IMG/VR virus record: IMGVR_UViG_3300037424_000564
Span: 1 to 64,000 of that record
Source of the DNA: a virus
Taxonomy: Duplodnaviria; Caudoviricetes
Reading direction: 5' to 3' (one strand)
DNA: 64,000 nt
In this document: positions 47,522 through 60,925 of the stretch, piece by piece
Layout of the letters: every line of letters begins with the position of its first letter
Numbering within the stretch: the first letter of the stretch is position 1
Program-made: the position numbers and the translations under genes
Notes under the pieces: generated by a model
Seen by the model: the letters and a program-made list of their open reading frames with translations, nothing else
Told to the model about the DNA's origin: nothing
Databases searched by the model: none

Positions 47522-49627
47522 TTATACCCAATCAGTCATAATACGATCCAAATCAAAAGGACTTAGATCCCCATCTTCTGCAATAACATAATCTGCATCA
47601 GATCTACGATAAACGATATCTGCACCTTGAGCAATAATATTTGAAACAAAAATATCATATAGAGAAGCAGATGTGTTTGCCATTTGTGTTGCTTTAGCAG
47701 CAGTAGCAACAGTAATTGGAAGAGTATTCTCTACACGAAATCCACTACCATCAATAGTAGTAGCTAGATCACACCAAATAATTTGATTATTTCTAATATC
47801 AACAATCAAAGGACTGGTTGAAGTAGCGTCAGCAGTTAAATCACAACGACCTTTGACAGATTTTGGTTCAAAGATTTCTCCTGAATTTACAGAAGAACGT
47901 TCCATCCATCCCATAAAACCAACTTCTAATTGATTCATTTTTTGACCAGTATAGCTATTAACATTACATACAACGTAAGCAACATTTGGATCAAGAGAGT
48001 TAAGATTTACATCAATAAATTCACTTGCACCAGTAGGAGCATCAACAATATCTCCAGAATGGTAGTAAGCATTATTACTACCACGTAGGTGTGTCCAAGA
48101 ACAATTACCTAAGTAATTCCAATCTGCGTCAAATGTAACAGCAGAAAGATCTAAATCAACTCTATTAGAGCCAATATTCTGCCAGTACATGAACAATCTA
48201 ACAGTAGGTGCAGTCAAATCAAAACGTGAACCTCGTCCAACTTGACGTAGTGCTGATGATGCACTACGATTACTAGAAGGAATTAACAGATTTTGACAGA
48301 TATCATCAATAAATACGTTTTTTCCCTTGATTTCAGTTTTGTCTTTATATTTTTCAATGATGGCATCAATAATAACTCTGACGATTCGATGCGTAATATC
48401 GTCTGTAAGTGGTTTTAAATTATTTTCAATGGTAATCACAGCATGAGATTTTTTAGGTAAAAAGATCCTATTTTTATAAGAACAAAGTTCATTACGACCA
48501 CGGAAATATCCATATAGTTGCCAAAGGACAGTTGTTGAAACTGAATTTGCAACTTTAGCAAATTCATTAATAACCTTATTAGGATTTGTTGCTTTATTAA
48601 TTAAAGCATTCAAACGTCTAGCGAAGTCACCGGGACGAGTTGCACATTTAGACAGAACTTCATCAATTAATCCAAGTTCAATGAAATATTCAATAATAGA
48701 ATTATAAGTCTTACAACCTTCATTACGAAGAGCATGAAAACAATCTACTGTTTGTGGGAATTGGGTTGAATATTCTCTTGGATGAAGCTTTTCAGCAACA
48801 CGAATCCATTTGTTGCGATGACGCATCAAATCTTCCCCAACATTGCTTGGATTCATTGATTCAAGTTTAGATAGAATCAATCTACGAAGTGAACGAGGGA
48901 TATTTTTATATTTGGTGTTTTTACCGAGAGATACATCACCACCAGACAGACTTGTAATGAAACGAAGAACATCAGTTGCAGTGGTTACTTGAGTATCCCA
49001 AACATTCATAATCATTTTGCGTTGATTTGATGTCGCTGTTTTACCATCACCAATAATACCAAATAGAGTTGCCATTCTTTCTTTATTGGTGAAGATTGCG
49101 TTACAAGAGAATCCAAATTCTACAAAGGTTTCAATATCAGAAACATCCTGAACTGAAGGAGAAGCTTTGGATTCGAGAATAGTTTTAAAACAATCAACAA
49201 TATCCTCCATAACACCTAAACCAATCCATTTTGCTTCGGTGATATCAGTGAAAGGAAAACGATATGATGTGTTATAATTTGGAATAAAGGAAGGATTGAG
49301 ATAATGACAAATAGCATTAATATAAAGTTCTTCCTCAGAAGCGGTAGCTACTTGTACAGGAAAATTACGATACATAGGACGATGATATACTATCCCATTT
49401 TGCTCTTTGATAATAGAAACAACAAAGTCATACAATGACTTTAACGTAGAAGAACTGGCAAGTTTCATTTCACCAATAAATTTTTCATCAAACACATAAC
49501 CTAGATCAGCAACATTCGCTATAATTGCACCAACCATACCGATAGGTGCTACATTTTCAGTAGACTCCGCACTGAAAACAATTTTAGATTTACGGCGAAA
49601 AATGATTGCATCGATTGAGTTAGTCAT
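47522..49627 (-). CDS. 701-aa protein with helical N-terminal region (possibly TROVE/Ro-like) and C-terminal TerD domain
   Basis: RVDLDLSAV, HSGDIVDAPTGASEFIDV TerD motifs. The TROVE assignment is inference. Confidence 0.7.
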   Translation of the reverse strand: MTNSIDAIIFRRKSKIVFSAESTENVAPIGMVGAIIANVADLGYVFDEKFIGEMKLASSSTLKSLYDFVVSIIKEQNGIVYHRPMYRNFPVQVATASEEELYINAICHYLNPSFIPNYNTSYRFPFTDITEAKWIGLGVMEDIVDCFKTILESKASPSVQDVSDIETFVEFGFSCNAIFTNKERMATLFGIIGDGKTATSNQRKMIMNVWDTQVTTATDVLRFITSLSGGDVSLGKNTKYKNIPRSLRRLILSKLESMNPSNVGEDLMRHRNKWIRVAEKLHPREYSTQFPQTVDCFHALRNEGCKTYNSIIEYFIELGLIDEVLSKCATRPGDFARRLNALINKATNPNKVINEFAKVANSVSTTVLWQLYGYFRGRNELCSYKNRIFLPKKSHAVITIENNLKPLTDDITHRIVRVIIDAIIEKYKDKTEIKGKNVFIDDICQNLLIPSSNRSASSALRQVGRGSRFDLTAPTVRLFMYWQNIGSNRVDLDLSAVTFDADWNYLGNCSWTHLRGSNNAYYHSGDIVDAPTGASEFIDVNLNSLDPNVAYVVCNVNSYTGQKMNQLEVGFMGWMERSSVNSGEIFEPKSVKGRCDLTADATSTSPLIVDIRNNQIIWCDLATTIDGSGFRVENTLPITVATAAKATQMANTSASLYDIFVSNIIAQGADIVYRRSDADYVIAEDGDLSPFDLDRIMTDWV

Positions 49628-55401: not shown

Positions 55402-55581
55402 ATTGCGGTAGATATGTCAGGTCTACCTTCCTTATTCCAGAGTCGCGTCATGGAAAACCAGAGGACTATTTAAGTTTTCGTATCCTTTAAGACCAGTTGC
55501 CAATTCTGGTCAGGATACTTATTTACCTTAGACGAAAGGTGGTTAATAGTCAAACCTTTAACATAAAATCATTTATTATAA

Positions 55582-55750: not shown

Positions 55751-55760
55751 ATAATATTAA

Positions 55761-55835
55761 GTCATTTTCGTGACTACATACTATGAATGCATGTAGTCAC
55801 GAAAATGACTACATACTATGAATGCATGTAGTCAC
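55761..55835. repeat. 19-bp-stem inverted repeat with a 35-nt-period tandem duplication
   Basis: TGACTACATACTATGAATGCATGTAGTCAC at 55771..55800 and 55806..55835. Confidence 0.85.
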
Positions 55836-58887: not shown

Positions 58888-59037
58888 ATGTTATGCTACC
58901 GATTTACATTAGGCTGATAAAGTGAAATAATCATTTCCTAACTATCTTGTAGCGATGGAAATTCTATCACAATGAATAAGCAGTCTCACATGGAGTTAAA
59001 GTATTCAATTGTGACTTAAGATTGTAGCCGTATTCTT

Positions 59038-59106
59038 TGGTGGAGCGACTAGGACTTGAACCTAGAATTGATGGGTTACAGCCATGCGTGATACCAATTT
59101 CACTCC
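59038..59106 (-). tRNA. Short tRNA-Tyr(GUA) lacking the 5' D-stem strand and variable arm (possible pseudogene)
   Basis: GGAGTGA/TCGCTCC, ATGG-CTGTAAC-CCAT, CCA; 69 nt. Confidence 0.6.
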
Positions 59107-59112
59107 AAAATT

Positions 59113-59194
59113 TGGTGGGTATGGTAGGACTCGAACCTACATGCTTTCGCTACGGTGTTACAGACCGCTGGACCACCAATTGTCCAACATACCC
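59113..59194 (-). tRNA. tRNA-Tyr(GUA), canonical type II
   Basis: GCGGT-CTGTAAC-ACCGT; CCA. Confidence 0.93.
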
Positions 59195-59651
59195 AAAGTA
59201 TGGAGACTAGTTATCGGACTAATCTTTATCCACATTTACTGATCCGATTCAGACTTAAGTTTATATTATTGTTAGACTACACACAGATCATTGTCCAGAG
59301 TTAATAGGCTCCTTCCTCCCTGATATCATCTTCAAATATAATTCAAAAGATTTAAGTTTTCGGGCATACCCAAGGTACTTATTACCTTAAAACTGAAGTA
59401 TAGCAAATAGGTAAATCTAAAATCTAACAACAATGGCTTTGACAGGGAGTTAGTTCCCTCCGGTAGGTATCATGTTGCAAATCATCGAATAGCCACTATT
59501 CATCGAATGATATTGAGAGTTTATTATTGGGATTGGGAAACTCTCTCTTTTACGCAACTGCTTAATAAGCATGGACCCAATTTTGATGTAAGATATTTTA
59601 ATATCTCTTGGAGGGCTTTTCATCCTCGTCGTTATCTTACATCTTGTAATA

Positions 59652-60397
59652 AGATTACTACTTAATCATTTGGTTGTCAATTTAAATCTTCAAGTTTTCA
59701 GGCATACCCAAGGGACTTGATACCTTGTATCTGAGAATTGAGAATTTTGATTTCAGGTGGTTATTCCAAGGACGTCTCCATTCTAATTAGCATTAGAACT
59801 TCACAGACTCACCACTATCCTATACATCCATCAAAACTTATCACTTTTGAAATTATAAACCGTGTCGTAATCTTTTCAGACCCAACAACCATACCTCAAT
59901 AAATAATGGCTGGCTTATAATTCTAGTCAAGCTACTCAATTTTTTCAAATAACTCGTTCAACATTGAAATAATCTTACTACTTAACCATTTGATTGTCAA
60001 TTTAATTCCAAAATAAATTAATTAAGTTAGAGTTCACATCACACACCTTCCTTTCACAAAAGTAGGAGTTATTGATTTTTGATTTTCTCTATCGTAACAT
60101 GATGATTTTACTTTGTCAATTTATTTGTATAAACAGATAGTCATTGATTGCATTTAAACTAAACTCTGCAAAGTTAGATCGCACCTACCTATCGTCAAGC
60201 CTTATTGTCGCCCCCTCTGGTTATCGTCAGGCTCTATTGTCGTATACATCTATCCACTTCTATTGAGTGGGTTTTATTTCTGATTGCAGTCAGAAGGCAC
60301 TTCAATCAATGACTTTCTGTTTATACAAATAAATTGTCTTGTCAAATAACTCGTTCAACATTGAAATAATCTTACTACTTAACCATTTGATTGTCAA
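59652..60397 (-). promoter_or_regulatory. Four tandem sigma70-like promoters (59652..59680, 59972..60000, 60091..60119, 60369..60397)
   Basis: Each is TTGACA-N17-TA(A/C)(T/G)(C/A)T; no ORF of 60 aa or more follows any of them in the ORF track. Confidence 0.8.
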
Positions 60398-60402
60398 TTT
60401 AA
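59945..60402. repeat. 61-bp exact direct repeat (59945..60005 = 60342..60402) containing a promoter and transcript start
   Basis: Base-by-base match at offset 397. Confidence 0.92.
60117..60336. repeat. 34-bp inverted repeat (1 mismatch) enclosing 152 nt with two 21-nt direct repeats
   Basis: 60117..60150 versus 60303..60336; inner repeats at 60190..60210 and 60222..60242. Confidence 0.92.
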
Positions 60403-60413
60403 ATTTTGATATG

Positions 60414-60490
60414 CGCCCCGAGTAGGACTTGAACCTACATGTATCCAATTAACCTTTCAATCGGTTCGTAGCCGAAGGGTATACCGAGAC
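60414..60490 (-). tRNA. Rearranged (D-arm-less, D-loop-displaced) tRNA-Arg(ACG)-like RNA
   Basis: GTCTCGG/TCGGGGC; TCGG-CTACGAA-CCGA; T-arm GTAGG-TTCAAGT-CCTAC; G73; 77 nt. Confidence 0.78.
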
Positions 60491-60504
60491 AATAAACTAG
60501 TTTG

Positions 60505-60590
60505 CAGCGAGTGAAGGCATCGAACCATTGACGCTATTAACGTCACCACTGTTTTCAAGACAGCTTGGGGAGCCAACCCCGGCACTCGCC
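60505..60590 (-). tRNA. tRNA-Ser(UGA)
   Basis: CTGT-CTTGAAA-ACAG; long variable arm; G73; weak T-stem. Confidence 0.85.
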
Positions 60591-60737
60591 ATTGATTAAA
60601 CTTTACTACATCTTTATTCAGTTGTCAAATTAAATATAGTAATTTCAACCCTAGAAGGACTTTCGTTAAACACTGCTAAAGCATTTTAAGTGTTAGTTGA
60701 AATCTTTACTGTCCATTAACTATATTATTGCTGTTTG

Positions 60738-60808
60738 TAGCTCTTAACAGAATCGAACTGTTGTTTATGGTATGTAAAACCACCACTCTACCATTGAGTT
60801 AAAGAGCT
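60738..60808 (-). tRNA. tRNA-Val(UAC)
   Basis: GTGGT-TTTACAT-ACCAT. Confidence 0.9.
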
Positions 60809-60818
60809 ATATTACTTG

Positions 60819-60888
60819 TGGAGATAGGCGGAATCGAACCCCCTGCTGAGATTTGCAAGACCTCTGCCCTTTACCAAAACATACCCCC
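60819..60888 (-). tRNA. tRNA-Ala(UGC) with reduced D-arm
   Basis: G3.U70 identity pair; CTTGCAA loop. Confidence 0.8.
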
Positions 60889-60894
60889 AAAACT

Positions 60895-60925
60895 AAAAAA
60901 CCCTTGTCACATAAGCAACAAGGGT
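60895..60925 (-). terminator. Terminator between the leader ORF and the tRNA array
   Basis: ACCCTTGT..ACAAGGGT followed by TTTTT. Confidence 0.8.

Follow-up and report, generated by a model that had tools for sequence, protein, structure and literature searches.

A conserved 36-nt element in the probable leader of a jumbo-phage tRNA operon

Phage tRNA clusters are known to contain leaders, spacers and stable RNAs, as in the tRNA region of T4, which has the stable RNAs C and D, and in that of T5. GOLLD and ROOL are likewise phage-borne, non-coding and often found near tRNA genes; they are 400-800 nt long and have many covarying helices. The smaller preQ1-I and preQ1-II riboswitches pair a hairpin loop with the tail that follows an A-rich linker, and preQ1-II embeds a hairpin in a long loop. 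In bacteria tRNA-Tyr carries queuosine. The type III antitoxins ToxI and CptI are pseudoknots, and a phage mimic, pseudo-ToxI, has been described (PMC5086642, PMC3475682).

Like the T4 and T5 tRNA regions, the locus described here places ORF-free sequence within a phage tRNA cluster. It may also be expressed in the same way, with host polymerase reading from phage promoters and with RNase P and other host nucleases releasing the RNA from the tRNAs. In contrast to the T4 and T5 RNAs, to which it has no sequence or Rfam relation, only a 36-nt element of this locus is conserved.

The window, which is the whole stretch of DNA that was analysed, comprises bases 1-64,000 of a 205,056-bp virus record (G000) that was judged complete. 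The record came from sediment, has a GC content of about 31%, contains a contractile-tail sheath gene and is a myophage. Nearly all genes of the window are carried on the minus strand. A tRNA island extends from about 51.3 to 60.9 kb, with 24 genes found by ARAGORN and 25 matches to the Rfam tRNA model, all on the same strand. Near its upstream end lies the region that we studied. A sequence-only reading had described this region as a promoter-driven, ORF-free, structured transcript of roughly 450 nt directly before tRNA-Tyr. We found that it does adjoin tRNA-Tyr, and no terminator-like site was predicted between 59650 and 59113.

59195-59650, minus: region under study, between a promoter-like site and tRNA-Tyr
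59113-59194, minus: tRNA-Tyr (GUA) with encoded CCA, the first tRNA downstream of the putative leader (ARAGORN; Rfam tRNA, 57.5 bits)

A blastn search of GenBank phages with 59100-60250 gave no match. When the DUF3850 protein and the dNMP kinase were used as anchors in IMG/VR only distant loci were recovered, and no close relative of the DUF3850 protein was found among 5.8 billion proteins. By these searches the phage is without a close relative in GenBank or IMG/VR. Searches with the sheath protein led to two members of its clade, both complete jumbo-phage records: G001, with a sheath 57% identical and the nearest large relative of the window phage, and G002 (51% identical). Both contain tRNA islands.

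Several other features of the islands and their surroundings were observed. In contigs from two other sediment runs, 59035 is followed immediately by 59111. The missing 75 bp (59036-59110) contain a weak tRNA-like gene (59041-59106, Rfam 37.6 bits), so that near-identical strains differ in the presence of this one tRNA gene. At 60505-60591 (minus) ARAGORN missed a tRNA whose variable arm is long and whose anticodon is UGA (Ser-like); it gives only a sub-threshold match to the tRNA-Sec model (38.4 bits against a gathering score of 47). Just upstream of tRNA-Lys, 55760-55835 forms a 20-bp perfect hairpin, the strongest stem in the tRNA island, and a 30-nt exact direct repeat (55771-55800 and 55806-55835) overlaps it. 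G001 encodes tRNAs with the anticodons UUA and CUA (L224 9877-9951 and 12644-12718), which would read TAA and TAG stops; none were called in the window. The interval 47522-49627 encodes a 701-aa protein with no Pfam domain, whose relatives at 22-32% identity belong to large phages of Rhodococcus, Mycobacterium, Xanthomonas, Lactobacillus and Rhodobacter.

The absence of a gene from the region held up. The longest ORF on the transcribed strand is 57 aa (59623-59450), a length reached by 21% of shuffles. A GAGG precedes its ATG and could be taken as a ribosome-binding site for a small protein; however, the GAGG abuts the ATG, whereas real genes of the phage have AAGGAG 6-9 nt upstream (38 genes). 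The frame has no Pfam or PHROG match, and against 1.84 billion proteins it gave only repeat-like, multi-stretch matches inside proteins of 700-1400 aa. A 2-nt deletion at 59596 in a natural strain, X4, shifts the frame, and reading any stop codon as sense still did not open the region. We consider it very improbable that this frame encodes a small protein; these data support the conclusion that the region is in practice ORF-free and non-coding.

GOLLD and ROOL had been named as possible relatives of the region, and a cmscan search covering these and OLE, tmRNA, RNase P RNA and 6S RNA had been proposed. At gathering scores a search of the whole window against Rfam returned only tRNAs. With E values up to 10 over 58900-60900, only noise was seen within 59195-59650 (tsr33 on the wrong strand, E 3.4, and sR30, E 6.7), and none of the six named families had a covariance-model match in the region. 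ARAGORN found no tmRNA. Neither ARAGORN nor the tRNA model (E up to 10) found a tRNA or decayed tRNA inside 59195-59650, and Rfam had no match to the corresponding region of G001 or to the loci of the conserved element alone. This supports the view that the region belongs to no described RNA family, in line with the earlier reading, which had assigned it to none.

We then defined a promoter family by searching the 205-kb genome for AAATTGACA, a 17-nt spacer and TAnnnT. Genome-wide 24 copies with an exact -35 and a 17-nt spacer were found, and the region stands directly behind one of them.

59652-59684, minus: sigma-70-type promoter of the phage family AAATTGACA-N17-TAnnnT (family pattern match at 59683-59652; repeat families D3 and D7)

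In this copy the -35 is TTGACA (59680-59675) and the -10 is TAATCT (59657-59652), which places the predicted transcript start near 59646-59644. Four family promoters occur within 750 nt (60397, 60119, 60000 and 59680), each preceding ORF-free sequence in the interval 59650-60402. The 59680 copy has the weakest -10 of the four, with three of six consensus positions, and falls below the threshold of a generic promoter scan. Thus the promoter that had been proposed belongs to a real phage family but has a weak -10. The site is predicted to be used as a promoter, and because its -10 hexamer is weak the leader may be read mainly from the upstream promoters.

The promoter units are partly duplicated. 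The segments 60402-60339 and 60005-59942 are 98% identical over 64 nt, including the first 25 transcribed bases. In G002 two units (L226 1733-1790 and 2166-2225) have the same promoter and ~30 transcribed bases in common, beyond which they differ, a pair that resembles units A and C of the window. Duplicated promoter heads with different bodies thus seem to be a recurrent feature of this phage clade. Elsewhere in G000, outside the window, there are three perfect 16-bp inverted repeats (65456-65499, 67637-67680 and 106792-106839); in each, a family promoter has its spacer paired with a segment further downstream, which includes a Shine-Dalgarno-like AAGGAG. The recurrence of this design at several promoters suggests a shared regulatory hairpin in the 5'-UTR.

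To describe the anatomy of the region we examined the hairpins that had been listed and the predicted fold. All of the listed hairpins are present in the sequence.

59585-59643, minus: 5'-proximal hairpin of 11 perfect bp (59643-59633 with 59595-59585) and a 37-nt loop (sequence, fold)
59389-59584, minus: non-conserved leader body with several short hairpins (sequence, fold, alignments)
59545-59538 with 59522-59515, minus: 8-bp stem
59511-59477, minus: 6+6 bp hairpin of the leader body
59501-59487, minus: GAATAG/CTATTC hairpin
59459-59444, minus: AGGGA/UCCCU stem, 5 bp
59388-59362, minus: two small hairpins
59195-59352, minus: 3' part of the leader (sequence, fold)
59234-59199, minus: bulged hairpin of the 3' part that contains the 'CCA', followed by 4 nt to tRNA-Tyr
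59224-59205, minus: GATTAGT/ACTAGTC and then T-CCA, 6 nt before tRNA-Tyr

The 5'-proximal hairpin begins 1-3 nt after the expected transcript start. In a fold of sliding 100-nt windows it alone stood out (z -3.2), in a test of limited power since the tRNAs themselves score only about -2. The minimum free energy of the whole region was ordinary (z -1.13, with 14 of 100 shuffles as stable; antisense +0.24), as was that of the leader body alone (z -1.24). The region contains 12 perfect stems of at least 6 bp, which exceeds mononucleotide shuffles. However, genome windows of the same size have a mean of 7.4 such stems and 12.7% of them reach 12, so the short-stem count is ordinary for this genome, in which perfect stems of at least 11 bp occur 56 times in 205 kb. 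The region folds no better than shuffles. The terminal hairpin followed by CCA was also reported correctly as sequence, but the fold predicts that the CCA is paired within a longer 6+7-bp helix.

We next compared the unit that contains the region with a paralogous unit upstream and with the two relatives.

60005-59684, minus: unit A, the upstream promoter unit, which ends in copy 1 of the 36-nt module
59685-59346, minus: unit B, the unit of the studied region, from promoter to module

Units A and B align at two places only: their initial promoters and a 51-nt repeat with which each unit ends. Between these the bodies of A and B cannot be aligned (p 0.34), and all pairwise body comparisons, including those with G001, gave p > 0.1. 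The ~260-nt body of unit B has no similarity to unit A, to unit C or to the matching unit of G001; the bodies of the three comparable units, two in the window and one in G001, are 242, 260 (unit B) and 224 nt long. The 5'-proximal hairpin has no sequence counterpart in unit A or G001.

The head of the G001 island consists of a family promoter, ~225 nt, two modules 59 nt apart, a second promoter, ~120 nt and tRNA-Tyr. Its ~225-nt stretch contains no convincing gene, only one 54-aa ORF with a GTG start. The 3' part of the window leader cannot be aligned with the G001 leader, and the hairpin with CCA is absent before the G001 tRNA-Tyr. A 10-nt word after the window module (59348-59339) equals the upstream flank of the second G001 promoter; no usable promoter exists at that site in the window. 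In G002 the order is promoter, 71 nt, module, 490 nt and tRNA-Asp.

DNA contigs from four other sediment runs were ~99% identical to the window over 59111-59690, which is too close for covariation analysis. They provided the following natural variants.

59596: 2-nt deletion in strain X4, in the loop of the 5' hairpin, with the 11-bp stem kept
59260, 59266 and 59336: substitutions in strain X2, in the 3' part of the leader
59442 and 59466: substitutions in the body
59406: 3-nt deletion in the body

None of the five substitutions or two indels touches a listed stem or the module. This placement is compatible with constraint but, with so few changes, is not evidence for it. One strain contig has a joint that skips 59691-60112 and hints at a strain without unit A (a single contig, with a 30-nt side). 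By these comparisons the promoter and the 36-nt module are the only conserved parts of the region.

The module occurs twice at the head of the window island and once more in a looser form. Relatives carry two copies (G001) and one copy (G002), and every copy lies in a tRNA island. Thus there are five tight copies: copies 1 and 2 of the window, two of G001 and one of G002. No chance matches to the module repeat were found in shuffles.

59353-59388, minus: module copy 2 (51-nt repeat D14; homologues in G001 and G002)
59691-59726, minus: module copy 1, at the end of unit A and 10 nt before the -35 of the 59680 promoter
55471-55529, minus: module copy 3, looser, between tRNA-Lys and tRNA-Gly (covariance model 17.4 bits; fold z -4.4)
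59388-59384 with 59376-59372, minus: S1 of copy 2 (pair table)
59381-59377 with 59357-59353, minus: S2 of copy 2, loop strand with tail strand (pair table, RNAfold)
59371-59362, minus: hairpin P2 of copy 2 (pair table, RNAfold)
59361-59358, minus: GAAA linker of copy 2 (pair table)

For the five tight copies a pair table was built from explicit coordinates, as MAFFT left the loop and tail strands out of register. A model-guided alignment mixed in antisense matches and was not used for the table, which reads as follows.

S1, AAGGU/ACCUU: 21 of 25 cells paired, with one A-U to U-A swap
P2, GGG-N4-CCC: 15 of 15 cells paired, invariant except for one G-U pair
Linker, GAAA or AAAAC/AAAAG: unpaired
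S2, the last five bases of the S1 loop with the five bases after the linker: 24 of 25 cells paired, with two to five pair types per position

The S2 strands of the five copies are UAAGU/ACUUA, CAAGU/ACUUG, GAAUC/GAUUU, AACUC/GAGUU and GGCCC/CGGCC, and every S2 position covaries. Loops and tails drawn at random with the same composition would reach 5/5 complementarity in all three independent copies with a probability of ~5e-5. RNAfold, which was blind to the alignment, predicted S2 enclosing P2 in 5/5 copies. S2 and P2 are therefore supported both by covariation and by RNAfold, and these statistics rest on five sequences from three phages. In the looser copy 3 the S2 strands and flanks are kept and P2 is replaced by a long hairpin. 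The module can thus be modelled as a bulged hairpin, or as an H-type pseudoknot with a hairpin in its long loop if S1 also forms. A plain bulged hairpin is a possible form, since S1 rests mainly on conservation and not on covariation.

This structure differs from the three-way junction that had been drawn at the same place. The outer helix of that junction, AGUUUU/AAAACU, exists only in copy 2 and competes with S2; the loop pairs instead with the downstream tail. Conserved structure is therefore present in the region as the 36-nt module with its covarying S2, but not in the ~260-nt body, the junction or the hairpin with CCA.

To determine how widely the module is distributed we searched larger collections. 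A degenerate pattern found it in only three phages of IMG/VR, with no chance matches. Looser patterns there gave 119 and 16 matches, all coding or chance and with no tRNAs nearby. The tight pattern in JGI metagenomes recovered only G001 and two GC-rich coding chance matches, and the degenerate pattern in GTDB genomes gave 23 matches, of which 0 kept both helices. Against 49 records of sheath relatives the covariance model R2 gave only matches of 14-16 bits, in a search that also missed the known G001 copy; a 16-bit match common to G028 and G030 lies inside an ORF, and G029 has a match of 14.7 bits. Lambda boxB, the RfaH ops element, the pistol ribozyme and a T-arm mimic were considered as relatives and rejected, since they share few bases or only a loose topology and have no Rfam support. 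The module thus appears to be a new, small RNA motif that is in no RNA catalogue and is so far found in three related jumbo phages.

No intrinsic terminator was called at any copy of the module. Its helices are 5 bp and A/U-rich, and a clear U-run follows only the G001-b copy. Three of the five tight copies are followed, after 10-23 nt, by a -35 box or a promoter relic, which suggests a role at unit boundaries or in protecting an end. However, a single positional role does not fit all copies: the G002 module comes early in a long leader, close to its 5' end, and copy 3 stands between two tRNAs. The stems covary freely whereas the loop and linker bases are fixed, a pattern that suggests that the element is recognised by a protein.

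How should the whole stretch be read? We favour an untranslated 5' leader of a multi-tRNA transcript that has tRNA-Tyr first and that carries the conserved element, which we regard as probably correct. This is the simplest reading: a family promoter and a hairpin at the 5' end are followed by a drifting body and one selected element, with no terminator before tRNA-Tyr. Against a leader, the three units of 260, 242 and 224 nt, each without a convincing gene and each ended by the module, could be discrete RNA genes. Promoter, body and module would then form a self-contained small-RNA gene, with two here (units A and B) and one in G001, yielding RNAs of ~290 nt in which the 3' module is a shared handle or end-protecting structure and the bodies evolve fast. 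The shared three-part layout fits this, as does the promoter or promoter relic that in three copies follows the module at once, as at the end of a unit. Against it, the module is not a terminator, with its weak helices and a good U-run in one copy only; in G002, 71 nt separate the module from the beginning of a 600-nt leader, and copy 3 lacks a body altogether. The bodies also lack any conservation or stability signal, and the contig that may lack unit A entirely would count weakly in the same direction. We regard discrete small-RNA genes as an unlikely competitor. Somewhat less likely still is a version of it in which the units would be a phage small-RNA gene family of tRNA islands whose covarying pseudoknot is a fixed protein-binding handle, acting as a decoy for a host RNA-targeting defence nuclease or as an adaptor for a phage protein, while the 220-260-nt bodies diversify rapidly.

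The remaining readings are weaker. The module could be a decoy, a phage-made pseudoknot that would neutralise a host type III toxin-antitoxin (abortive infection) system by mimicking its RNA antitoxin, or that would likewise neutralise some other defence protein that binds RNA. A type III antitoxin forms an H-type pseudoknot in which the tails are single-stranded and the loops A-rich (PMC5086642), and a phage that encodes and expands such a mimic is known (PMC3475682). [quoted passage not shown] Unlike ToxI and CptI, the module has no tandem array, adjacent toxin or Rfam match, contains an extra mini-hairpin in its long loop and always lies in tRNA islands, a location that a decoy does not explain. 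Tandem Repeats Finder detected no relevant array of ~34-45-nt direct repeats in the window region or the G001 unit. Because tandem repeats and an Rfam match (which would cover ToxI if Rfam holds such a model) are both lacking, membership of the type III antitoxin family is disfavoured. The units are not flanked by a conserved cleavage motif, and we consider a decoy improbable. An equally improbable reading takes the stretch as spacer without function that remained after promoter units were duplicated; the module would then be conserved at the DNA level, for example as a protein site upstream of a promoter. Both the 98% identity of the duplicated promoter heads and the three module copies just upstream of a -35 box or relic agree with this. 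However, compensatory changes on both strands of S2 preserve pairing and not sequence, which argues for an RNA helix and not for a protein site on DNA, and neither the G002 copy nor copy 3 has an adjacent promoter. We give hardly any weight to one large, ornate, conserved ncRNA of ~450 nt like GOLLD or ROOL. The region is ORF-free, lies beside phage tRNA genes and has many local hairpins, but in contrast to those RNAs it has no Rfam match at any threshold, a fold z of -1.1, an ordinary density of stems and no conservation beyond 36 nt. Its body is conserved in neither paralogue nor orthologue and tolerates natural indels.

We also compared the module, which lies upstream of the queuosine-bearing tRNA-Tyr, with the preQ1 riboswitches. 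The module shares with them the pairing of a hairpin loop with the tail beyond an A-rich linker and, with preQ1-II, the hairpin in the long loop. In contrast to these riboswitches, the loop bases that would contact a ligand are not conserved, the loop sequences differing in all five copies, there is no Rfam match, and no expression platform or regulated ORF is present at the module.

In the favoured reading, that of a leader, host sigma-70 RNA polymerase would read the stretch from one of the four closely spaced phage promoters and continue into tRNA-Tyr. The leader would be a composite and not one folded machine. At its very 5' end is a hairpin; such terminal stem-loops are known to slow 5'-end-dependent decay and to stabilise transcripts in bacteria. 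This would be followed by ~200 nt of fast-evolving spacer with incidental small hairpins, by the one conserved 36-nt element, and by ~150 nt of further spacer up to the predicted RNase P site of tRNA-Tyr. In the element the 5-bp hairpin AAGGU/ACCUU would have the last five bases of its loop paired with the tail past GGG-N4-CCC and GAAA. The element would act in cis on RNA, and its likeliest role may be that of a boundary or stability element, or of a protein handle in the processing of the leader.

Our data thus confirm part of what had been noticed at this locus and do not support its interpretation as a large structured RNA; most likely it is an ordinary tRNA-operon leader with a small motif. 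A chain of hairpins found by hand in an AT-rich genome should not be taken as evidence for a large structured RNA. The sequence between the genes of large-phage tRNA islands is usually ignored, and here it would be mostly fast-evolving leader. The module within it is kept across phages whose sheath proteins are 51-57% identical, and its fold is backed by compensatory changes. This suggests a concrete and testable new RNA motif tied to the expression of phage tRNAs.
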